Counted from the stretch's first letter, positions 6,099 to 38,881 are shown. The stretch: 64,000 nucleotides of DNA from a phage (GCA_020773975.1 GCA_020773975.1_3638.1); one strand, 5' to 3'. Numbers and translations: made by a program. The notes: a model not told the origin generated them from the sequence alone.

Positions 6099-6731
6099 GT
6101 GGCCTTTGTTTTAGGAGGTTTAATGTATCCAATTCCTTGTTTCTATAATACAATTATTAACAAGATAGCGGCACAATCCATAACTTTACAACCTATAGGT
6201 ATTGCATTAAAAGGTAGTTCTAAAAAGCTGGCGTATGCGGTTTCCCCCGAAGGGGCTGATATATATGATATAACTTTTGAAGCTAATACGCCGGATTCGG
6301 TCTCTGTTAATAAAGATGGGGAAATATCCTTTATTTCAGAAGGTTACTTCAGTATATTAATGACAGCAAAGACAGTTGGAGATATAACTTTATCCGATGT
6401 TATAATTGGAAATGTAGAAGAGTTGAGATTGGACGTTGACCCTATAGGAAATAGACCAATCGGGGACAGGTTCTGGTTTGTCTATAGAGGCGATCCTTCT
6501 TTTGATCCTGGCAACCCATCCCCTAATATGGTTGGTTTTGATGTATTCCCGCCAAAGATCATGGAAGAAGATGACTTCTTTGTCTATGGGTTTGCAGAAA
6601 CACCTAACATCATAAGCATGGCTCCTAGCGGGATATTTACATGCATATCCTCTGGTGAGGCACAATGTGGATTAAAAGGTACATACAAAGATGTTTCTGC
6701 CACCCACAAAGAAACAGTAACGGTGGTTTAA
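6099..6731 (+). CDS. Ig-like (BIG2-type) domain protein, probable fibre-associated
   Basis: BIG2-like segment YAVSPEGADIYDITFEANTPDSVSVNKDGEISF. Confidence 0.4.
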   Translation: MAFVLGGLMYPIPCFYNTIINKIAAQSITLQPIGIALKGSSKKLAYAVSPEGADIYDITFEANTPDSVSVNKDGEISFISEGYFSILMTAKTVGDITLSDVIIGNVEELRLDVDPIGNRPIGDRFWFVYRGDPSFDPGNPSPNMVGFDVFPPKIMEEDDFFVYGFAETPNIISMAPSGIFTCISSGEAQCGLKGTYKDVSATHKETVTVV

Positions 6732-6883
6732 TAAAGCTCTTTTATAATTTTGTAGGACATCACTTATTTTTACAAGTAAATATTTATTACAAATAATCCA
6801 CACTTTATAGGAGTATGTAATTATCATAAGATCGCCACTGTTGTATAAATCCCTAATAAACACCTAGACTTTAATCAAAAAAT

Positions 6884-6908
6884 GGAGGGGAGATCCCCTC
6901 CATTTTTA
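6884..6908. terminator. bidirectional rho-independent terminator between convergent blocks
   Basis: GGAGGGG-agat-CCCCTCC hairpin flanked by A-run upstream and T-run downstream. Confidence 0.7.
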
Positions 6909-6916
6909 TGAGGTAT

Positions 6917-8134
6917 TTACAGGATGTATACCCGATGTTTACCGTACTGTAGACCTACAGGACTGAAAGGGATATCTTCATCATAGTCAAATTCAGGTGC
7001 TGGCGATTCCATATTCGGAATATCGCTATTGGAACTGTTCAAAGGTTCCTCAGCATGCTGTTTGTTCTTTTGTTGTGTCTTCCCATCACCTTTAGATAAG
7101 AACTCGTAAAACGGCTCTGATAGTGTTAGGTAAACATCTTTGGCGGCATTCAGAATACTATCTTCTGTTATTTTATCGGTTTGATGATACAAAGCACAAG
7201 CCACTAAGATAGCATTACCCGCACTAGCGCCCACCGCATTAGATTCCACATCTTTTCCTGTTTTCTCTGCCACAAAAGCCTTCATAGCTACTGTAGCGTT
7301 GTGAACCATCTTCGCGGCAGAGAGACGATCCTCGATCTTAAAACCAGCTTTAATGAGTTCCTTCACACCGTTGATGCCGTGCCCACAAGCAACACCTAAA
7401 GCATCATAGCCGCCAGATGACTTCTTAGTCTGCCCAGCAGGACCATAGGCTTTAAATCCACTTAAGACCGTACCATCACTTAGGTTAACAATCGCAGTGA
7501 CACGACCACCTACTACAACTTGCGCCAATTGCTCATCTGTGAGGACAAGGTTTCCTTGACCATTCTTCTCATCATTAACTGTCACCACATTGCCAACGAT
7601 TGCAGCAATCTCACCATAAATTTTAGTGCCTTTAACTTGGGCATTTGCAGGTGATTGGGTCGAAGATTGCTGGCGAGGAGCACTTTGACCAACTTTACTT
7701 TCATCGAGAATGCTGAAGGTCTTTCCGTTTAAAGTGCCGTTTGTATACGTTTTATCCCCACTCTTAGTAATTTTGAGAGGGAAAGAAACAACCATCCCCG
7801 CCACAATATCTTTGTATCCAGAATCAAATTTCACCTGAATTTTGTCTGCATGGCTTGGGTGAAGTTTTTTCTCACCCATAGAAATCCACTCACCTTGGCT
7901 CTGTGGGTCAATAACGTTGTTATTATCGTCAACCTCTTGCATCAGGAAACTGATTGAGTGCGTAGCCTCAATAACTTTAGCTGGTTGCCCGTTGCGAGCA
8001 GGGATATGGGTACGCCGGATACCATCTGCGTCAGCGTTTTTCACTGGACGAATATTAACATACTTGATAAAACCTTTCGCAAAATAATCAACTTTTCCGT
8101 TGATTGGATTCTTAAATTCATTGATTACGCTCAT
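6917..8134 (-). CDS. putative ssDNA-binding protein with SSB-type acidic DIPF motif
   Basis: Acidic C-terminal region EFDYDEDIPF resembles the SSB tail, but is followed by 15 further residues; position at head of replication block. Confidence 0.45.
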   Translation of the reverse strand: MSVINEFKNPINGKVDYFAKGFIKYVNIRPVKNADADGIRRTHIPARNGQPAKVIEATHSISFLMQEVDDNNNVIDPQSQGEWISMGEKKLHPSHADKIQVKFDSGYKDIVAGMVVSFPLKITKSGDKTYTNGTLNGKTFSILDESKVGQSAPRQQSSTQSPANAQVKGTKIYGEIAAIVGNVVTVNDEKNGQGNLVLTDEQLAQVVVGGRVTAIVNLSDGTVLSGFKAYGPAGQTKKSSGGYDALGVACGHGINGVKELIKAGFKIEDRLSAAKMVHNATVAMKAFVAEKTGKDVESNAVGASAGNAILVACALYHQTDKITEDSILNAAKDVYLTLSEPFYEFLSKGDGKTQQKNKQHAEEPLNSSNSDIPNMESPAPEFDYDEDIPFSPVGLQYGKHRVYIL

Positions 8135-8148
8135 TCTCTCTCCTTTTA

Positions 8149-8490
8149 TTACTTAACGCCTTCAGCAGTTTCGTTTCCAACGCTCAACATTTTATCTACC
8201 ACTAAATCTTCAACTTGATTTAGCAGGTTCAATGCAAAAGTGGAAGCAGTATTTAATTTCAACAAATTGTTGCGGTGTCCTCGGATCCATGAAATTGCAT
8301 CCTCTACCGTTTTATAGTTACCACTTTGGATGAGCTTTAGCATCTCTTCTCGAATTTCTTTCGACCCGATTACTGTTCCCATCTGGTGACTGGCGCTGGA
8401 CAAGTATACGATTGTTCCAAACTGCCCTTCATCAAGATCAAGAAAACGGATATCCTCTTTATTTTCAGGTGTTTGTTTTTCTTTAGGCAT
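8149..8490 (-). CDS. hypothetical protein
   Basis: ORF with TTGACA-containing promoter-like sequence upstream. Confidence 0.4.
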   Translation of the reverse strand: MPKEKQTPENKEDIRFLDLDEGQFGTIVYLSSASHQMGTVIGSKEIREEMLKLIQSGNYKTVEDAISWIRGHRNNLLKLNTASTFALNLLNQVEDLVVDKMLSVGNETAEGVK

Positions 8491-8550
8491 GTCTATTCCT
8501 TACAAGGTTGTTGAGTATCACATCTTACACTATGCATGCATGCATGTATG

Positions 8551-8742
8551 TCAAGATGATTTTTTGTCTTTTTCTTGGAGAAAAGACAGGACAAATGCTG
8601 TAACCGCTATAATCAAAGGGGGCATGACAACAATTGCCCATGGTAGGTATAGAGGGGCAAGAACTAACCACCAAGACCAGTCTATAATCTCACACAACTT
8701 CAACGCTATGAAGAGAATGCTTAACGCAGATAAAAATCTCAT
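8551..8742 (-). CDS. small membrane protein
   Basis: Two hydrophobic segments in 63 aa. Confidence 0.35.
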   Translation of the reverse strand: MRFLSALSILFIALKLCEIIDWSWWLVLAPLYLPWAIVVMPPLIIAVTAFVLSFLQEKDKKSS

Positions 8743-8749
8743 AAAAACC

Positions 8750-9031
8750 TCAAGAGAAAAACTCTTCTATAACTTCCCAAACCCTTTCCGAACCCCCTCC
8801 TGAAAGGATACTCCAAATAACCATATCTTGATAGCCTTTCTTACACACATCCACTTGTCGAAATGCTTTGTGGAAACCCTCTGGACAACCATATTCCACA
8901 GGGAGCATATCCACATTATCTTCGAAATATTTAAGTAGCAATTCCTCTTCCAAAGAGGGGTTGTTGCGAAGTTTCTCTTTGAGATTCTCAACAAGTTGTG
9001 CACCTGTTAACTTTTTGTTTGTCATGTCCAA
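8750..9031 (-). CDS. hypothetical protein
   Basis: ORF in leftward operon; preferred over the overlapping frame 8767-9003. Confidence 0.35.
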   Translation of the reverse strand: MDMTNKKLTGAQLVENLKEKLRNNPSLEEELLLKYFEDNVDMLPVEYGCPEGFHKAFRQVDVCKKGYQDMVIWSILSGGGSERVWEVIEEFFS

Positions 9032-32497: not shown

Positions 32498-33706
32498 TTA
32501 ATTTAAAATTGCATCTACATCTTTTGCAAAGTTCTTGTGATATTCAGTAATAATCTGCATGACAACAGGATACTTCTTAAGTAACTTCGCTGGCAGTCTG
32601 TCACGAAGGCCATCTAACAAAATACCCTTCCCTGTAGAACTGTCATTAATAAACATCATGAAGACAGATGATACAAAATCACGGTTGGAATGAGCATCAT
32701 CTTTACCAAAGTTATCATACAGATATTGCAAGAAATTGGCTGAGAAGTCAATAATCTGATCATCTGTGTAGTTGGTATTCTTCATAGCCTTACGTAGCCA
32801 GATGCAACCTTGTGATCCTAGCGTCCACAATACATCAGAGCTATCAGAGCCAGTGTGTTCCTTAATTGAACCATCCATTACTTTCTCAATGGGGACCATA
32901 TCAGCAACGCGAGTATGGTAATACCATAACTCTTTCATTAACGGCCCACCAATACACCCTTGCAAAGCAGCCATTGCAAGACGGGAAGTAAGATCACCAT
33001 CCTCATACGCATACAGAATATCACTTGCAGTAACCCAAGTTCGTGGTGTGGCATATGCAGGACTGTTAATCTCATACATGGCCTCGAAGTTTTCCAGTTT
33101 ATCGGGATTGGCCTGGATAAAACCAATTACTGATGGATGCACATTTTTACGCAACGCATAATCCTGCATCCACACAGAGGCATCGTAATCAAGTTCCACA
33201 ACAATAAAACGGTTAGCCAAAGGAGCTTCCATCATGGTCACTGCCGTACCATCACCAGGACGGTTCCCTGCCGCTGCAAAAACTGCACCTTTTGGAAAGG
33301 TGTACTTACCAATTTTATGATCCAAAACAATCTGGAAAGCTACTTTCTGTAAGTAGTTATCAGCATGTAAAAGTTCGTCAAGGAAAATAATACCTTCCCA
33401 ATCTGGGTCTTCTGGCCAGAAATCTGGTAGCGCATAGACTGTACGTGTTTTTCCATTATCGTCTGTTACAGGAATCTGTACACCTACTACGTCTGTCGGA
33501 TCTTTATCCGCAAGACGAAAATCAACGAGATTATCATCTCGTTCACCAAACATCTCATTGGCAACTTGCTTCATGACTTGACTCTTACCAAGCCCAGCAC
33601 CACCAAACATCATAAGTGCTTTGTTTGCCTTCTTACAAAATTTCATGAGGCTTGGAATATCACGGAGTGTAACACGATGATCTTCAAAAATATTTCTACT
33701 AGACAT
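32498..33706 (-). CDS. AAA+ ATPase, MoxR/AAA_5-like
   Basis: Walker A GGAGLGKS; Walker B IIFLDELLHA. Confidence 0.6.
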   Translation of the reverse strand: MSSRNIFEDHRVTLRDIPSLMKFCKKANKALMMFGGAGLGKSQVMKQVANEMFGERDDNLVDFRLADKDPTDVVGVQIPVTDDNGKTRTVYALPDFWPEDPDWEGIIFLDELLHADNYLQKVAFQIVLDHKIGKYTFPKGAVFAAAGNRPGDGTAVTMMEAPLANRFIVVELDYDASVWMQDYALRKNVHPSVIGFIQANPDKLENFEAMYEINSPAYATPRTWVTASDILYAYEDGDLTSRLAMAALQGCIGGPLMKELWYYHTRVADMVPIEKVMDGSIKEHTGSDSSDVLWTLGSQGCIWLRKAMKNTNYTDDQIIDFSANFLQYLYDNFGKDDAHSNRDFVSSVFMMFINDSSTGKGILLDGLRDRLPAKLLKKYPVVMQIITEYHKNFAKDVDAILN

Positions 33707-33941
33707 TCGTCTCGTTCCTTAAATCGTTCTTCTGCTCAAGATAACTTTCAATGATACTGTCTATATCTGCTGATTCAATATCAGCATACAGATTCATAAT
33801 GCTTGATGCAAGGTCTTTGGCAGAAAAATTGTCTACTCTTTCTGCACCAAAAACTAAAAACCATTGTCGTCGTGTCATCCTCGCTCTAACAACGGTTTTT
33901 AAATACTCCGCTCTCTCTGAAAAATCAAGAGGTTTTACCAC
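33699..33941 (-). CDS. hypothetical protein
   Basis: ORF. Confidence 0.35.
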   Translation of the reverse strand: MVKPLDFSERAEYLKTVVRARMTRRQWFLVFGAERVDNFSAKDLASSIMNLYADIESADIDSIIESYLEQKNDLRNETNV

Positions 33942-34291
33942 TTATCCACCCAAACTCTGTTCTCATCACACCAGTCGTAGAACTCGTTCAAAGCTAGATT
34001 GAACTGCTGTAGAGGACTCACGATAAGGTTGGGGTTATCTTCTTTGCTACAGATTTCCAAGTATTCTTCATATGTGAGAATATGCTGCATTTCTTCAAGA
34101 ATATCATACAACCACCCATCGAAGTCAGCATTCTCTTCATCAGTTTGCTTTGGTAAAAGTCGTTTTACTCTTTTTACAAGCATGTCCACAAACAGGTGAA
34201 TATTATCATCTGCCCAAGGCTCTACCTTACCTTCTACGGGATTACCTTTCCAGATATCACGTAAATCAAGTCGATGTTTCCACTGTGCCAT
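33935..34291 (-). CDS. hypothetical protein
   Basis: ORF. Confidence 0.4.
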   Translation of the reverse strand: MAQWKHRLDLRDIWKGNPVEGKVEPWADDNIHLFVDMLVKRVKRLLPKQTDEENADFDGWLYDILEEMQHILTYEEYLEICSKEDNPNLIVSPLQQFNLALNEFYDWCDENRVWVDKW

Positions 34292-34292
34292 T

Positions 34293-34487
34293 TTATAACT
34301 CCTTAACAGATTCTAAATCAAGATATTCATCACCACCCACTCGTTTACCGTCTTTCTTACGGTATTTTGCCTTGCTTTCAAATGCTACCCAATAAGCACC
34401 TTCATCTTTTAACTTGTCTTCCCATACCCAACCGAACTGCTTTTTCCTAATGGTTCCTTTGTGGGTATATTGTTGTTTACAATACAT
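34293..34487 (-). CDS. hypothetical protein
   Basis: ORF. Confidence 0.3.
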   Translation of the reverse strand: MYCKQQYTHKGTIRKKQFGWVWEDKLKDEGAYWVAFESKAKYRKKDGKRVGGDEYLDLESVKEL

Positions 34488-34488
34488 C

Positions 34489-34704
34489 CTAATCCTCCCA
34501 TTTTATCCATAAAGGGTATTCTGCAACATGCACTTTCTTACCCTTTTTGTTAATAAAAGTATACTCAACAAACTTTGCTATGTAAAACCTATTGTAATCC
34601 TCTGTACCTTTAACAGGACAGTCTGTTTTCCTTCTCTCCACCCATTCTCTGTGGATCACCGCTTTGTTCTTTGGATCAAATGGATGTGGTTGATAAACAT
34701 TCAT
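34489..34704 (-). CDS. hypothetical protein
   Basis: ORF. Confidence 0.3.
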   Translation of the reverse strand: MNVYQPHPFDPKNKAVIHREWVERRKTDCPVKGTEDYNRFYIAKFVEYTFINKKGKKVHVAEYPLWIKWED

Positions 34705-35201
34705 TATTTCCCCTCGAATCTTTTTCTTGCATCAGCAAGTTTAAGATGCATTTCATGGTATTTCTTTAACCTTGCCAAATCCTTATCAGATAAGGATTTA
34801 AGACGTTTTACGTCCATATTGTCTTTTAAATCAGCGAGTTTTACACGAATCGCATCATAATTAGTACAGATGCCCTCAATGTACTCTTCTTCAGTCAGGC
34901 TCTGTTTCTTTGTTAGCAGAAGAACTGCATCTTTTACTCTGTTAGTGAACCCTAACATTACCAAATCGTAAGCTGTAACTTTAGTATCCTCAAGGATATC
35001 GTGAAGGACACCGATTGCCATTAGCTGTAAGTCATCATTACCAAGTTCATGCATCACCCTTAATGGGTGAAGAATGTATGGCATTCCACCACGATCTTTC
35101 TGCTTAAGATGGTTTTCAGAGGCCAACTTTACAGCTAAAGCCAACTCCTGATGGGGTCTTAAATCTTGCATATTACTGGGGACAGACTTCGATTGTACCA
35201 T
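34704..35201 (-). CDS. small alarmone hydrolase (SpoT/RelA-type HD domain)
   Basis: YILHPLRV...GVLHDILEDT matches the (p)ppGpp hydrolase HD motif. Confidence 0.7.
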   Translation of the reverse strand: MVQSKSVPSNMQDLRPHQELALAVKLASENHLKQKDRGGMPYILHPLRVMHELGNDDLQLMAIGVLHDILEDTKVTAYDLVMLGFTNRVKDAVLLLTKKQSLTEEEYIEGICTNYDAIRVKLADLKDNMDVKRLKSLSDKDLARLKKYHEMHLKLADARKRFEGK

Positions 35202-36019
35202 TTATATGTCTCTTCCATGTTAAAGGGTTTTATACCGATATTATCAAAATCTACAAGAGAATCAAGAAAAAATTCTCCTTTGTACCCAGCCATTTCTATC
35301 ATTGAGCGTTCCTCTTGGGTAGGGATCTCCCCCAAGATAAGCTCTTTTAGCTCCTTTTCTACAACACGATGGTACATTACTTCTTGGGTATTACACACCA
35401 AGTAGTAGTGCGATTTCTTATTCTCTACGTTTGGCGTGTTGGCTATCTTAATTGCAGCATGACCTACATAATCATACATCTTTGTTTGGTAAAACATTCC
35501 ATAACAACCCGCCAGAGAAAAGGATCCAAAACTGGAGTTAATCTCCCTGATGTGGAGAATATCTGGGTTTGTTCTGACATAGGAAGCCTTTATGGAAAAC
35601 ATATTACCATCCCAATGCCCCAATTGGGACAAAACAGACAGGAATTTTTGTGTTCGTGCAGACAACGATCCTGCTAAACACATTCCATAATTAAAGCCTT
35701 GGAAAGAAATTGTTATTTGCCCACAAGTAATATCATAGCTTGAAAACTCATGCGTTAAGTTTACGCTTGCCATGTAAGCACGCTCGTCAGCTTCAACATA
35801 ATATTTCCAGTAACATTTCCTATCCCGAGTATCAAAACACATAAGCACAGCATGTTTTATGAGTTCTATTAAAGGGTTTGGTTCATGGTGGCGACTTTCA
35901 ACTTCCCTTATAATGGCTTCACGGAATACATTAAAATCTATTTTCATAGATTTTGTGTGATACAGGTAGGCATCAAAGTAAGAAGAAATGTTTTCGTCAG
36001 GTATCTTTGTCATGGTCAA
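35159..36019 (-). CDS. hypothetical protein
   Basis: 286-aa ORF, first gene of the leftward block. Confidence 0.45.
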   Translation of the reverse strand: MTMTKIPDENISSYFDAYLYHTKSMKIDFNVFREAIIREVESRHHEPNPLIELIKHAVLMCFDTRDRKCYWKYYVEADERAYMASVNLTHEFSSYDITCGQITISFQGFNYGMCLAGSLSARTQKFLSVLSQLGHWDGNMFSIKASYVRTNPDILHIREINSSFGSFSLAGCYGMFYQTKMYDYVGHAAIKIANTPNVENKKSHYYLVCNTQEVMYHRVVEKELKELILGEIPTQEERSMIEMAGYKGEFFLDSLVDFDNIGIKPFNMEETYKWYNRSLSPVICKI

Positions 36020-36124
36020 ACTCCAAAAATATTTTCATTGGTTATGAGGAATGTACAGAACTAAAAAATCAAAGTCAACGCTTGACAAACTGGAAATTTG
36101 TGAGATACTACGAACACAAGTTAA

Positions 36125-36940
36125 GTGACAGAGATATTCTGTATGAACTGGAATGAAGAGTTTACAACCAAAGAGATAAGGTATCTCAAAACACGACTCT
36201 TTTTCAAAAAGAGGAATACCAAAGCGAGAGGTATAGAGTTTAATCTGACAGAAGATGACTGGTTTATGATGGGCAACGGATTACTTGGGAAAGGTGTTTG
36301 TGATTACACAGGCCTACCTTTTTCTGCAACACCTAATGACCCCCTCTACCCGTCTGTTGAACGAATAGATGACAAAAAAGGGTATGTTCGTGGAAACGTT
36401 TGTGTAGTCGGTAAGAGAGCAAACCAGTTAAAAGATTTTCTTGTAGACAAAAAGAAAGCTCTAACGATTGTAGATCCACTCGACATGGATATCGTCCAAG
36501 GAATGATGTTAAATATGTCAAAGGATCACTTGGAAAAGTTAAAACTTAAATACATACCTACGGAAACAGATATGAAAGAGACAGAGAACGTAATTATTGA
36601 TGAGCAGGTTGAAGAGATGAAAGAAAAATCTCTTCCTGACGATGTTGAAATTGCACTTGCATACGCAAACTACTGTAAAACATTTGCGGAAGCAGGTATG
36701 AATGTTAGCGTTACTTATGCACAATTTAAAGCTAAATATTCAAGAAACACCTGTTCTCTAACAGGGGAGAAGTTAACAAAAACACCAAAACCTATTCTCA
36801 TTATGGATTTAGATCTTGGGTTCGCAAAAGACAACTTTATTATTGTTTCTGAAAAGATGGAAACAGCATTAACACAACTCATGATCAATACGAAAATGAG
36901 TTTACCAAAAATTACAGCTATGCTGAACAAGGTGGTTTAA
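36125..36940 (+). CDS. HNH-family (HNH_3-like) endonuclease-like protein, two tandem domains
   Basis: CDYTGLPF...PSVERIDDKKGYVRGNVCVVGKRANQLK and a second degenerate copy. Confidence 0.45.
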   Translation: MTEIFCMNWNEEFTTKEIRYLKTRLFFKKRNTKARGIEFNLTEDDWFMMGNGLLGKGVCDYTGLPFSATPNDPLYPSVERIDDKKGYVRGNVCVVGKRANQLKDFLVDKKKALTIVDPLDMDIVQGMMLNMSKDHLEKLKLKYIPTETDMKETENVIIDEQVEEMKEKSLPDDVEIALAYANYCKTFAEAGMNVSVTYAQFKAKYSRNTCSLTGEKLTKTPKPILIMDLDLGFAKDNFIIVSEKMETALTQLMINTKMSLPKITAMLNKVV

Positions 36941-37128
36941 TGAAAGATTCTCTACCAAAACCGTGTCCGTTTTGTAAAAATGATGCACTTCTGCTTAAAC
37001 AATCACGCTCTGGTCAAACAATATTTCACTACATTTACTGCCAGAAATGTGGAACATCTGGGCCACAGGCTCTGAGTGAGCCTACTGCTGTAAGTTGGTG
37101 GAATGTCGGTAATAAAGAGGTAAAATAA
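36940..37128 (+). CDS. Lar-family (restriction alleviation-like) zinc-ribbon protein
   Basis: CPFC...CQKCG in 62 aa. Confidence 0.45.
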   Translation: MKDSLPKPCPFCKNDALLLKQSRSGQTIFHYIYCQKCGTSGPQALSEPTAVSWWNVGNKEVK

Positions 37129-37129
37129 T

Positions 37130-37393
37130 ATGTTTGAAGAGATTCTTGGAAGGCCAGCTACCGATCAAGAAGCCCAGATGATTGAATCTGGAAAGAAACC
37201 AAATTTTAAAGTTGGTGATAGGGTTCGTTATAAAAATGCCAGAAACGTTATAACTTCTGTAGAGGCTATAGTATTATTTATGTTCCCACACCAACCAACT
37301 GGAGGACAAGTTCCGGTATGGGGAGCCAGATTAACTGGCGGTAATAATTTTATGCCGCTTGATACCATAGAATTATTTACAAGTAAAAAATAA
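37130..37393 (+). CDS. hypothetical protein
   Basis: ORF. Confidence 0.4.
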   Translation: MFEEILGRPATDQEAQMIESGKKPNFKVGDRVRYKNARNVITSVEAIVLFMFPHQPTGGQVPVWGARLTGGNNFMPLDTIELFTSKK

Positions 37394-37444
37394 CAAGTAT
37401 AATAGGCTGTCGAAAGATAGCCTATTTTTGTATGGAGCATAATT

Positions 37445-38881
37445 ATGCAAAAAGACGAACATGAAATGATTGCCAAGTTAGAGAAGGATGCTGTAAAAGT
37501 TATCCAATCGGCACGAATAGCTCTTTTAAAGTACAGACCATTTTACGGGACTTTGTTAAGTTCTCTACCCTTAGTTGCTAACTGGAAATGGTTGCCAACA
37601 GCAGCGACTGATCACAAAAACCTCTACTTCAACCCTGAGTTTATTATGGGTATGCCTGAAGAAAGGAAGAAGAAGGTTTTTGAGCGTGTGGATAATCACC
37701 CCACAATGACACAACAAGAAAAAGATGACTATAAAGACTATGTGAACGTATTTTATCGTAAGAAAACACCCAAAGAGGTTGTTGTTATTCTTATGCACGA
37801 GCTACGTCATATTACTAACGATCATTTATCCCGTGGAAAAGCATTTGATTCTAAAACCTACAACACAGCAGCAGATCATTATATTAACACGGATTTAGTG
37901 GTGTCTGATCTTGGGCCACGCTCCAGCCAGATGTGTTTCTTCCCAATGGGGAAACAGACAACCTTTGACAAAGGTAAAGAGTTTGGGTTTATGGCTTATT
38001 GCTACTGTGATTTTAATTTCCACGGTAAGACAGCGGAGGAGATTTACAGTCTCATAAACAAAGGCCAACCGTCTGTTGGTAAACCTATGGGCACACACAT
38101 AGGTGATTATGATCAAGACAGCAATATCCTAGGATATGAAGATCCTCACCCAGTGCCAAGCCAAGCAGAAAAAGATGATAATATGTCGTGGTCATCTGGT
38201 CTTATCGAGGCCGCGATGGAAGCAGCGGGAGGAGAGGGGCCGAAAGAGGTGCGTGACGTTATTGCAAGAATGCGTAAACCACACATAAATTATCTTCAGA
38301 TAATCAAACAGCGTATGCTTTCTCGGATCAAGTCTAACCTGACATACAGGAAACCATCTCGTAGGTCTGGATCTATGACACAGGCACTTCGGCAGTATGG
38401 AGCTATTGGAAAAAAACAGCATATTGTTTTACCAGGAAGGGAGTACGATAATACTATAGATATAGTTATTGGCTTCGATGTGTCTGGATCAATTTCGAAG
38501 GCGAATTTAGACAAAATCTTCGGAGAAATTGTAGGATTATGCCAGCTTTACCGCGTTTTTCGCGTGACATTGTTCTGTTGGTCAACAAAAGTCGGAGAGG
38601 TTAAAGTTTATACACATGATAATATCAAGGAAATGCTTGATTATAAAGTAAATTCTACGGGTGGGACACTTGCAGCATCGGCTTTTGAGTATATTGAAAA
38701 TAACATTTTTGATGCAAAAGACGTTATTATTTTTACAGACGGATATATAGAGGATTTAAGACACAAGAAAAAAGATTGGGGACGCAAATGGGATATTCTT
38801 TGGGTTATTTGTGGTCGCGGAAATAATAAATTTGTACCACCTTTCGGAAGGGCTGTAAATTTAGATGAACACGCAAAATAA
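37445..38881 (+). CDS. putative metallopeptidase (HExxH) fused to vWA domain
   Basis: LMHELRHI zincin-like motif; C-terminal MIDAS-like DVSGSIS. Confidence 0.55.
   Translation: MQKDEHEMIAKLEKDAVKVIQSARIALLKYRPFYGTLLSSLPLVANWKWLPTAATDHKNLYFNPEFIMGMPEERKKKVFERVDNHPTMTQQEKDDYKDYVNVFYRKKTPKEVVVILMHELRHITNDHLSRGKAFDSKTYNTAADHYINTDLVVSDLGPRSSQMCFFPMGKQTTFDKGKEFGFMAYCYCDFNFHGKTAEEIYSLINKGQPSVGKPMGTHIGDYDQDSNILGYEDPHPVPSQAEKDDNMSWSSGLIEAAMEAAGGEGPKEVRDVIARMRKPHINYLQIIKQRMLSRIKSNLTYRKPSRRSGSMTQALRQYGAIGKKQHIVLPGREYDNTIDIVIGFDVSGSISKANLDKIFGEIVGLCQLYRVFRVTLFCWSTKVGEVKVYTHDNIKEMLDYKVNSTGGTLAASAFEYIENNIFDAKDVIIFTDGYIEDLRHKKKDWGRKWDILWVICGRGNNKFVPPFGRAVNLDEHAK

Follow-up and report, generated by a model that had tools for sequence, protein, structure and literature searches.

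A split MoxR-vWA/metallopeptidase gene pair in an Av-05-like phage, a probable member of the N4 gp24/gp25-type module

The window analysed here is a 64,000-nucleotide stretch of phage DNA related to Escherichia phage Av-05 (Vequintavirinae). It encodes a MoxR-type AAA+ ATPase and a protein that joins a zincin-like domain to a vWA domain, on opposite strands and in separate gene blocks, and we consider it very probable that the two are functional partners. A sequence-only reading of the window had suggested that they may form an ATPase plus vWA/peptidase remodelling or processing pair, and it is from comparative genomics that this suggestion draws its support. The idea of such a pair is not new: the architecture is known from jumbo phages (PMC7824862), and N4 gp24 and gp25 are adjacent core genes (PMC4193335). 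The window genes are ordinary in kind and constitute a further member of this known pair.

The ATPase gene (N4 gp24 family, 402 aa) occupies 32498..33706 on the minus strand, and the vWA-metallopeptidase gene (N4 gp25 family, 478 aa) occupies 37445-38881 on the plus strand, stop codon included, with 3,738 bp from start codon to start codon. The ORF listing recovered both where the sequence-only reading had placed them, and the motifs quoted in that reading were found in place: in the ATPase, GGAGLGKS spans aa 35-42 and IIFLDELL aa 106-113, and in the 478-aa protein HELRHITNDH spans aa 118-127 and DVSGSIS aa 345-351. In HMM scans of the whole window, each family corresponds to exactly one ORF.

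The vWA protein was said to carry an N-terminal HExxH motif and a C-terminal vWA MIDAS, and both Pfam domains score above their gathering scores with complete motifs. The zincin-like DUF2201_N domain (PF13203, E 9e-20, 71.8 bits, cut-off 23.2) covers 37445..38437 and the vWA domain DUF2201 (PF09967, E 2.6e-10, 40.9 bits, cut-off 26.4) covers 38456..38881 with the stop included, both on the plus strand and in an order common to all homologues listed. Alignments A1 and A6 place the zinc-site motif H118-E119-x-x-H122-x-x-x-x-H127 at codons 37796-37825 (+) and the invariant D144 of the same domain at codon 37874-37876 (+). The MIDAS is complete, with D345-x-S347-x-S349 at codons 38477-38491, T408 at 38666-38668 and D432 at 38738-38740, all on the plus strand. 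The zinc motif, catalytic Glu included, is kept in 197/199 viral copies, and the motif is found in 80/81 cellular copies. Inteins in relatives P0218 and P0238 interrupt exactly the HExxH and A-x-D motifs, which argues that these are critical sites. Secondary Pfam matches in the DUF2201 family are weak, to Peptidase_M48 and SprT-like domains and, in 8 of 22 members, to VWA_CoxE, and fold comparison likens the vWA/MIDAS domain to those of Rea1-MIDAS, NorD and BchD. A clade-specific insertion of ~40 aa, at roughly residues 70-110, precedes the HExxH helix. Our literature search found no experimental report of peptidase activity for proteins combining DUF2201_N with DUF2201. The label "HNH endonuclease", carried by phrog_1314 and by RefSeq Av05_00170, appears to be an annotation error: no HNH family matches the window's vWA protein at E up to 1, and none is among the 25 families listed, of 27 in all, for 22 DUF2201-family members scanned.

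The ATPase matches phrog_1297, "ATPase", with E 2.5e-105 in the PHROG search. In Pfam it falls below every gathering score, with bpMoxR as its sole match (E 0.0047, 16.5 bits, cut-off 27), so its MoxR/AAA_5 assignment depends on its homologues and on the similarity of its profile to midasin AAA domains (E 5.5e-28). Among 33 homologues, AAA_5 matches 18, bpMoxR 17, AAA_3 13 and, weakly, Mg_chelatase 4; the AAA_5/MoxR-like type that had been claimed is thus supported transitively. A full catalytic set is present, comprising Walker A K41/S42, Walker B D110/E111, sensor-1 N148, R166 and R222 (true residue numbers; the numbering of alignment A5 is one lower), in which R166 is the putative arginine finger and R222 the putative sensor 2, both assigned by position. 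These residues are kept in 194-200 of 200 viral copies and in 74/74 cellular ones. The AF2 model (pLDDT 89.6) predicts a helix-2-insert hairpin, whose strands 75-80 and 86-91 come after beta2 and before the Walker-B strand, and a small pre-sensor-1 hairpin at about 130-135; a C-terminal helical domain runs from about residue 270 to 402. A helix-2 beta-hairpin insert together with a pre-sensor-1 hairpin defines the MoxR clade (PMC7159879), and the predicted structure contains both, as identified by position. Fold and sequence comparison finds resemblance to dynein, CbbQ, NorQ and midasin. Seven MoxR subfamilies are distinguished in the Snider-Houry scheme: MRP, RavA, CGN, APE2220, PA2707, YehL and TM0930/APE0892. 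Solved CbbQ, NorQ and RavA chains are absent among the best 60 sequence matches listed for the ATPase family, so it appears distinct from these solved subfamilies.

The case for partnership comes from how consistently the two genes travel together. Across loci that are mutually related within each clade, and of which L294-L324 are largely contigs of L004-L024 sampled again, 123 of 127 viral loci seeded with the vWA gene have the ATPase within 10 kb. In 104 of those 123 it lies upstream on the same strand, 54 times with a gap of at most 300 bp, and the remaining 19 are divergent, all Av-05/PVP-SE1/rV5-like. Three of the four exceptions have only 0.1-6.5 kb of upstream sequence, and in the fourth the ATPase lies elsewhere on the same contig. 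Seeding with the ATPase gave the same picture, as a vWA gene follows downstream in 70/70 informative loci and is present in 30/31 loci of Vequintavirinae type. Five of six phages that by tblastn apparently had the ATPase only carry a downstream vWA-family gene by HMM; Thermus phiFa and Staphylococcus AH12 are among these five. A 636-kb phage with an ATPase-family match has no vWA gene within 8 kb, and in one related contig the two genes are at least 36 kb apart. Failure to co-occur in related phages had been named as an outcome that would speak against the pair; what we found is near-absolute co-occurrence from both genes.

The module ranges over N4-like phages, Vequintavirinae, many jumbo and aquatic phages, and bacteria. 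With the exception of one Vequintavirinae sub-lineage, the two genes invariably share a strand, with the ATPase first and usually abutting the vWA gene: Certrevirus (CR3-like) loci keep this order with a spacing of 16-536 bp, and the genes are also adjacent in the jumbo-size contigs L026 and L028. Cellular loci follow suit, with the ATPase directly upstream of the vWA gene in 73/75 informative cases, and so does the cellular contig L003; in sulfur-oxidising bacteria the pair is a chromosomal operon whose examined neighbours are not recognisably phage genes. MoxR ATPases are known to be paired with VWA proteins (PMC3893208, PMC7159879). For the window ATPase, the coupling to a vWA/MIDAS gene is phyletic rather than one of adjacency. 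No ATPase-vWA fusion protein occurs among the 150 best family representatives, and no third gene conserved across clades was found beside the pair.

Gene order in the sampled genomes indicates that the genes were ancestrally adjacent and co-oriented, the vWA gene following the ATPase directly. The N4-type co-oriented order is absent from the window (divergent, 3.7 kb), while homology to the N4-like proteins is present. Throughout the Av-05/PVP-SE1/rV5 lineage the genes lie on opposite strands about 3.4-5.1 kb apart, and the gene orders of CR3 and the window are compatible with one inversion; we infer that the split arose from an old, lineage-specific inversion of the block running from the HD hydrolase to the ATPase. 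The divergent intergenic junction at 36020..36124, between the minus-strand ATPase block and the plus-strand vWA block, would then be the strand switch that this inversion left, and the GC-skew changes sign at this point, at ~36 kb. rV5 has a switch of transcription orientation at nt 6425 (PMC3606486), which falls between the ATPase and vWA positions of rV5-type records. Promoter-like sites at the junction point both ways, 36082-36109 (+) and 36078-36050 (-); a consensus scan of the region gave a total of such sites no higher than chance. The region's best sigma-70-like match (TTTACA-16-TATAAT, 11/12; 37376..37426, +) lies directly 5' of the vWA start and is, by consensus match only, a candidate separate transcription signal for that gene; it overlaps a hairpin with an 11-bp stem followed by a T-rich stretch.

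After the split, both genes have stayed under strong purifying selection, with all catalytic and metal-binding residues intact. Compared with Av-05, the ATPase has a dN/dS of 0.033 and the vWA gene one of 0.037. Every motif residue is kept in 20/20 Vequintavirinae-type vWA copies examined (the 19 divergent loci and L018). Hardly any variation is seen at the ATPase, zincin and MIDAS residues among about 280 non-redundant copies. Synonymous divergence from Av-05 differs across the junction (dS 0.03 vs 0.26), which implies that the two sides can be exchanged separately.

The ORF map confirms that the pair is split across the divergent junction by the genes named in the sequence-only reading, namely a SpoT-type hydrolase (HD/SpoT-like, TIGR00691, E 7e-14), an HNH-like ORF recognised by PHROG match only, and a Lar-like ORF (Pfam E 7.7e-9). 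The neighbourhood of the pair in Av-05 holds rII (rIIA/rIIB), RNA ligase, macro domain and HD hydrolase genes; dCTP deaminase and ThyX adjoin it in N4-like phages, and in the aquatic clade a 5'-3' exonuclease is nearby. Small neighbouring ORFs carry "tail protein" labels from PHROG without Pfam support. Ternary conflict systems have a third core component (VMAP, beta-propeller or FtsH) and effector domains. We rejected a MoxR-vWA ternary conflict or anti-phage defence system for the window pair, as neither protein matches a PADLOC model, no third gene is conserved and the bpMoxR match is sub-threshold.

We think it fairly probable that the two ORFs are two subunits of one conserved N4 gp24/gp25-type module that works as follows. 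The ATPase would assemble into a hexameric AAA+ ring, by analogy with midasin/Rea1, CbbQ-CbbO and NorQ-NorD, and the vWA domain would dock on that ring. Its MIDAS metal site would bind an acidic residue or an extended peptide of a client, ATP hydrolysis would pull or remodel this client, and the fused HExxH zincin domain would then cut it, a step particular to the gp24/gp25-type family. The whole would amount to a two-component, ATP-dependent, MIDAS-targeted metalloprotease acting in trans. That a client is processed in this ATP-driven, MIDAS-plus-zincin manner is, on the strength of these analogies, a proposition we hold to be evenly balanced. N4 gp24 and gp25 are core, middle-expressed genes (PMC4193335, PMC2784036), the N4 literature being the only source for the expression timing of the module. 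Because the pair sits among early/middle, replication and nucleotide-metabolism genes, an intracellular non-virion client seems somewhat likelier than a structural one, and we tentatively put the idea of a non-structural, early or middle client at just short of an even call. A further-reaching version, unlikely in our estimate, makes the module a novel type of ATP-dependent protease in which a MoxR ring and MIDAS adaptor deliver one universally conserved replication-stage protein, of host or phage, to the zincin for cleavage. If true, N4-like phages, Vequintavirinae and many jumbo phages would share this cleavage as an essential step of the early or middle stage, and the pair would not be a virion-assembly chaperone; the natural split seen here would demonstrate assembly of the two subunits in trans.

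A single functional proposal has been published: Iyer et al. 2021 (PMC7824862) suggested for the group 2.2 jumbo phages that the pair chaperones tail or head assembly while the metallopeptidase trims structural proteins. The analogy drawn there is with MoxR p618 of Acidianus two-tailed virus (ATV), which acts in tail development as cited in PMC3893208, and a module that belongs to the core of tailed phages with widely differing hosts suits a conserved, phage-encoded client. We regard such a role as possible but doubtful, given that the pair keeps to early/middle, replication and nucleotide-metabolism neighbourhoods and not structural modules, and that N4 transcribes gp24/gp25 in its middle phase but its structural genes late (PMC4193335). 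Vequintavirinae, moreover, already own a separate prohead protease (CB7_5 in Certrevirus CB7, PMC7344957), the nearby tail labels lack Pfam support, and the chromosomal operon of sulfur-oxidising bacteria has no recognisable phage genes among the neighbours examined. That operon also weighs against a host-directed takeover or anti-defence protease, one that would cut or dismantle a host protein early in infection. The Lar-like restriction alleviation gene, macro domain, (p)ppGpp-hydrolase-like HD protein and rIIA/rIIB nearby are the company such a protease might keep, and an ATP-dependent remodeller joined to a protease, with a MIDAS suited to a specific acidic epitope (PMC7159879), would be apt for the task. 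However, anti-defence genes are usually patchy and fast-evolving, and here dN/dS is about 0.03; the pair is core across Thermus, Staphylococcus, Roseobacter and Escherichia phages, which speaks for a universal client and not for a lineage-specific defence protein; and PADLOC shows no relationship. We therefore find this role quite unlikely.

We give little weight to a third role, in which the pair would be a chaperone for metal-cofactor insertion or enzyme activation that matures or reactivates a metalloenzyme, for instance one of nucleotide metabolism, with HExxH as a metal-handling site and not a protease. This is the job of the best-characterised bacterial MoxR-vWA systems (PMC3893208), with NorQ-NorD, CoxD-CoxE, CbbQ-CbbO and the CobS-CobT and BchI-BchD chelatases as models; the folds resemble CbbQ and NorQ and the VWA domains of NorD and BchD, the weak VWA_CoxE and Mg_chelatase matches point the same way, and nucleotide-metabolism enzymes adjoin the pair in N4-like phages. 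Yet every similarity to a cofactor-insertion family is below family threshold, no gene for a metalloenzyme accompanies the pair consistently from clade to clade, and the HExxH catalytic Glu, kept in all but two viral copies, is what one expects of a hydrolytic zincin. It is very improbable that there is no partnership in this phage, the genes being independent since the split or one of them a relic. The separate, divergent gene blocks, the vWA gene's own promoter-like site, the contrast in dS across the junction and the one contig with widely separated genes would all be compatible with independence, but both genes are kept with intact motifs and low dN/dS in every split-clade genome sampled, each family is single-copy with no alternative partner in the window, and linkage is universal outside the split clade.

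The nearest known system is N4 gp24 (AAA ATPase) and gp25 (vWFA protein), core genes of the Schitoviridae that are homologous to the window pair, with the same domain architecture and motifs (PMC4193335); the "gp24-like" and "gp25-like" proteins of N4-like phage PA26 match the family HMMs built here at 6e-60 and 4.5e-82. The N4-like genes are adjacent on one strand, whereas those of the window are 3.7 kb apart and divergent, and the Vequintavirinae proteins differ in the extra ~40-aa insertion before the HExxH helix of the vWA protein and in a longer C-terminal helical domain of the ATPase. Group 2.2 jumbo phages have a MoxR AAA+ ATPase and a vWA protein that bears a metallopeptidase at its N-terminus, described as a "chaperone-cochaperone pair" (Iyer et al. 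2021, PMC7824862) and likened to the window pair by this description of the same architecture; the T4-related gammaproteobacterial jumbo phages G17, SHEFM2K, fHe-Yen9-04 and Muenster match both window proteins. That account concerned jumbo phages only and proposed a role in virion assembly, whereas the pair here is split and belongs to a genome of about 121 kb. Midasin/Rea1 is a single giant eukaryotic polypeptide with six fused AAA modules and no peptidase that acts on pre-ribosomes, in contrast to separate small subunits, a presumed homo-oligomeric ring and a fused zincin. The adaptors of CbbQ-CbbO, NorQ-NorD and CoxD-CoxE lack a peptidase domain and serve to remodel or metallate enzymes, not to cleave them, and their sequence similarity to the window proteins is below family thresholds. 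FtsH, like the proposed machine, couples an AAA+ motor to an HExxH zinc protease for ATP-dependent proteolysis, but the analogy is one of function only: FtsH is one membrane-anchored polypeptide from another AAA+ clade that threads its substrates through a pore and has no MIDAS adaptor.

The AAA+ ATPase, the MIDAS-bearing vWA domain and the HExxH domain encoded by the two genes are all under selection, and the genes are inherited together as a single conserved unit. In the window, the ATPase ORF (32498-33706, minus strand, 402 aa) and the vWA ORF (37445-38881, plus strand, 478 aa) lie on opposite strands, with 3,738 bp between their start codons, and flank a strand switch at 36020-36124 where the sign of the GC skew also flips. 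The sequence-only reading had described this arrangement, and the ORF map recovers both genes at the same coordinates. The motifs it had quoted are all present as well: GGAGLGKS (aa 35-42) and IIFLDELL (aa 106-113) in the ATPase, HELRHITNDH (aa 118-127) and DVSGSIS (aa 345-351) in the vWA protein. Escherichia phage Av-05 (Vequintavirinae, Avunavirus) is ~95% identical to the window across the pair region, and family HMMs find one member of each family in the 64 kb.

The genes between the two are those it had named, namely an HD/SpoT-like hydrolase, an HNH-like ORF (recognised by PHROG alone) and a Lar-like ORF (Pfam E 7.7e-9). The 165-aa HD-domain protein (34704-35201, minus strand; phrog_990) is similar to the hydrolase portion of RelA/SpoT (TIGR00691, E 7e-14) and is a candidate (p)ppGpp hydrolase of the phage. 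Its gene shares a 43-nt overlap with a 286-aa ORF (35159-36019, minus strand), whose 'thymidylate kinase' label in PHROG and RefSeq lacks Pfam or NCBIfam support. Across the junction, a 271-aa ORF (36125-36940, plus strand) is labelled inconsistently by PHROG (HNH endonuclease, endonuclease VII, 'Srd anti-sigma factor', 'decoy of host sigma70') and has no Pfam match. The region's best sigma-70-like site (TTTACA-16-TATAAT, 11/12; 37376-37426, plus strand) is directly upstream of the vWA start codon and overlaps a hairpin with an 11-bp stem followed by T-rich sequence, possibly a terminator and promoter pair that insulates the vWA gene. Promoter-like sites are no commoner in the region than expected by chance (28 vs 25 ± 5.4), so co-regulation cannot be inferred from the promoter scan.

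The ATPase matches phrog_1297 ('ATPase') with an E-value of 2.5e-105, and its one Pfam match, to bpMoxR, is below threshold. More distant homologues carry AAA_5, AAA_3 and AAA; among 33 aligned members, AAA_5 is found in 18, bpMoxR in 17 and AAA_3 in 13. The best solved relatives of the family profile are the AAA modules of midasin (E 5.5e-28), and an AF2 model (pLDDT 89.6) has beta-hairpins at the positions expected for the helix-2 insert and the pre-sensor-1 hairpin, the two features that define the MoxR/dynein/midasin clade (PMC7159879). Homologue domains, profile match and modelled hairpins together support assignment to the MoxR type. In the alignment, the catalytic set is complete (K41/S42, D110/E111, N148, R166 and R222). 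In the G7C-like Escherichia phage vB_EcoP_PW8 (locus L212, 6830-8750), the gp24-type ATPase gene is itself split (6830-7036 and 7905-8750) by a free-standing HNH endonuclease gene (7145-7693), and the vWA gene follows directly.

Pfam recognises two domains in the vWA protein above threshold, DUF2201_N (putative metallopeptidase, E 9e-20) and after it DUF2201 (VWA-like, E 2.6e-10), an architecture common to all 120 database homologues among the matches listed; clustered at 50% identity, the family still has ~32,000 representatives. When 22 and 95 diverse members are aligned, it emerges that H118, E119, H122, H127 and D144 (HExxHxxxxH, then A-x-D) are invariant or nearly so, and that the MIDAS set (D345-x-S347-x-S349, T408 and D432) is likewise conserved. 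A search by sequence found no solved structure for the family, nor was there a solved relative of the N-terminal DUF2201_N domain among the matches listed. The predicted zincin character of this domain draws on its motif, on how Pfam describes the family and on weak matches to Peptidase_M48 (in 6 of 22 family members) and SprT-like domains. Inteins characteristically sit in catalytic motifs of important proteins, and two homologues carry inserts exactly at the predicted zinc site: P0218 (794 aa) has a Hint plus LAGLIDADG intein inside HExxHxxxxH, between 'HEVLH' and 'CVYEH', and P0238 (733 aa) has an intein-like insert of ~300 aa ('C...THN|C') at the invariant A-x-D motif, between 'WNMA' and 'CDYNIN'. 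The inserts thus give independent support for the importance of these motifs. A search of the 150 best family representatives for Rosetta-stone fusions of ATPase and vWA protein returned these same two long proteins, which are intein hosts rather than fusions.

The vWA-metallopeptidase is named 'HNH endonuclease' in PHROGs (phrog_1314) and RefSeq (Av05_00170), and the label has spread through RefSeq and many GenBank phages, including Av-05, CR3, CR8, CR9, Presley, Moo19 and Piffle. No HNH family matches the window protein at E-values up to 1, and none is among the families shown for the 22 vWA-family members scanned. Other database names are also odd: P0003 is called 'DNA repair ATPase', and the ATPase homologue P0170 'ribosomal protein uS19'. 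Phages of the rV5, PVP-SE1 and Av-05 type go into therapeutic and biocontrol cocktails and their annotation should therefore be correct; replacing the 'HNH endonuclease' label is of immediate value.

The suggestion that ATPase and vWA protein act as a pair would have been undermined by a failure of the two families to co-occur. Examined from both genes, with loci retrieved by clade-specific alignments, co-occurrence is near-universal, which supports the predicted partnership. An ATPase-family ORF is present in 123 of 127 vWA-seeded IMG/VR loci with 10-kb flanks; three of the four exceptions have just 0.1-6.5 kb of upstream DNA, and in the fourth (L018) the ATPase is on the same 136-kb contig (as locus L302), at least 36 kb away. 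This Vequintavirinae-like contig (IMGVR_UViG_3300045988_163358) has the ATPase at ~4.2-5.4 kb and the vWA gene at ~103.4-104.9 kb on the same strand, the distance being at least 36 kb even if the genome is circular; either the split is wider still in this case or the contig is misassembled. From the other side, the vWA gene is directly downstream in 70 of 77 ATPase-seeded loci of the aquatic clade, and in the remaining seven the contig ends within 1.1 kb. It is within 10 kb in 30 of 31 loci seeded from Vequintavirinae-type ATPases, which largely re-sample contigs of the vWA-seeded set and are not independent of it.

In a tblastn search of 50,697 phage records, 824 had an ATPase match and 493 a vWA match. 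The gap might have been read as a population of ATPase-only phages, but HMMs place a vWA-family gene just downstream in five of six records checked from the ATPase listing alone, among them Thermus phage phiFa and Staphylococcus jumbo phage AH12; the gap is mostly an effect of sensitivity. The only candidate ATPase-only case seen is an uncultured 636-kb phage (LR756504.1, 556004-572600; locus L213), where the 8 kb to each side of the ATPase-family ORF (family HMM E 6.6e-42) hold no vWA-family gene. Neighbour clustering of 193 viral loci found no third gene common across clades, so membership of a MoxR-vWA ternary conflict system was rejected, as was membership of a PADLOC defence system, for which there was no match. 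Among the conserved neighbours in the aquatic clade, only a 5'-3' exonuclease has a Pfam match.

The pair is also found in bacteria. Of 75 informative loci in sulfur-oxidising Gammaproteobacteria, 73 have the ATPase gene directly upstream of the vWA gene and co-oriented with it, and the same holds in a 1.97-Mb contig (L003). As a chromosomal operon, the cellular pair (L003 and L214-L293) occurs in Chromatiales, Sedimenticola, Thiodiazotropha symbionts and Sulfuricella, often followed by a gene for an unannotated protein of ~370 aa. A Sel1-repeat protein is encoded upstream in L003, SoxY lies ~3.5 kb downstream in 29 loci, and in one copy KQxxH replaces HExxH. Neighbour clustering in the bacterial loci, confounded by spurious ORFs in high-GC DNA, returned only the Sel1-repeat protein, the ~370-aa protein and SoxY and was uninformative on the client.

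Adjacency is probably the ancestral state, judging from the outgroups. In all lineages but one the ATPase precedes the vWA gene on the same strand (104 loci, in 54 of which at most 300 bp separate them), whereas the divergent arrangement is confined to 19 loci of Av-05, PVP-SE1, Klebsiella, Erwinia and rV5-like phages, with gaps of 3.4-5.1 kb. In Certrevirus (CR3-like), of the same subfamily, the pair is on one strand, 16-536 bp apart. The CR3 order is macro(-), HD-hydrolase(+), ATPase(+), vWA(+); that of the window is macro(-), ATPase(-), HD-hydrolase(-), junction, vWA(+). One inversion of the HD-to-ATPase block, with a breakpoint in the short ATPase-vWA spacer, would turn one order into the other. 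Since the HD gene lies upstream of the ATPase and shares its strand in the window as well as in CR3 (locus L318, 7740-8399), it would have moved along with the ATPase; the HNH, Lar-like and small ORFs between junction and vWA gene are variable cargo.

The split genes remain constrained. Measured against Av-05, the ATPase has a dN/dS of 0.033 and the vWA gene one of 0.037, and all ten motif residues are kept in 20 of 20 Vequintavirinae-type vWA copies (the 19 divergent loci plus L018). Among non-redundant ORFs from all fetched loci, zinc-site residues are kept in 197/199 viral and 80/81 cellular copies, MIDAS residues in every non-truncated copy, and ATPase residues in 194-200 of 200 viral and 74/74 cellular copies. 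Recombination history seems to differ across the divergent junction; dS against Av-05 is 0.264 for the vWA gene (77 nt differences) and 0.032 for the ATPase (9 differences), ~8-fold apart.

By analogy with MoxR/midasin-vWA systems (PMC3893208, PMC7159879), and given the resemblance in fold to Rea1-MIDAS, NorD, CbbQ and NorQ, a ring would be formed by the ATPase. The vWA domain would dock on it, plausibly at the ring face or at the C-terminal helical domain of the ATPase, and its MIDAS ion would bind a client through an acidic residue or an extended peptide. The client would be remodelled by ATP hydrolysis, which the fused zincin may then cut, a step proposed because the catalytic Glu is near-invariant. 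The outcome would be an ATP-dependent, MIDAS-targeted metalloprotease with two subunits in trans. That the ATPase and the vWA protein are not partners at all is highly improbable given how consistently they co-occur, and a role of the pair in inserting a cofactor is improbable too, if less so.

As to the client, Iyer et al. suggested that the jumbo-phage pair acts in virion assembly and processing (PMC7824862). We consider virion assembly rather unlikely here, as the context of the pair is consistently non-structural, and lean tentatively to an intracellular client of early or middle infection. N4 gp24/gp25 are middle transcripts (PMC4193335), and the neighbours of the pair are of nucleotide-metabolism and replication type: dCTP deaminase and ThyX in N4-like phages, a 5'-3' exonuclease in the aquatic clade, and RNase H and RNA polymerase in phiFa, with rII, RNA ligase, macro-domain and HD-hydrolase genes in Av-05. 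Certrevirus CB7, moreover, encodes its own prohead protease (PMC7344957).

The module is a core pair in N4-like phages and occurs throughout Vequintavirinae and in many jumbo and aquatic phages; few non-structural gene pairs of large virulent phages are as widely conserved. The separated genes should be read as one machine, and mutated or deleted jointly in experiments. We found no experimental study of the family (DUF2201, COG3864, N4 gp25) in the literature, where it appears in genome descriptions alone, and a text search of the phAPEC6 and rV5 papers found no mention of these proteins. HMM scores show the window proteins to be homologous to N4 gp24 and gp25, two of the 14 N4-like core genes, annotated 'unknown' and 'vWFA domain' (PMC4193335, PMC2784036), and jumbo phages of the type described by Iyer et al. 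are among the matches of both. The pair idea is thus correct, yet it has been published before for other groups of phages; no new kind of system is revealed, and the window's only special handle on function is the natural split. Added here are the module in Vequintavirinae, its apparent splitting by inversion yet retention in most of the subfamily, and its near-universal co-occurrence in phages and bacteria.
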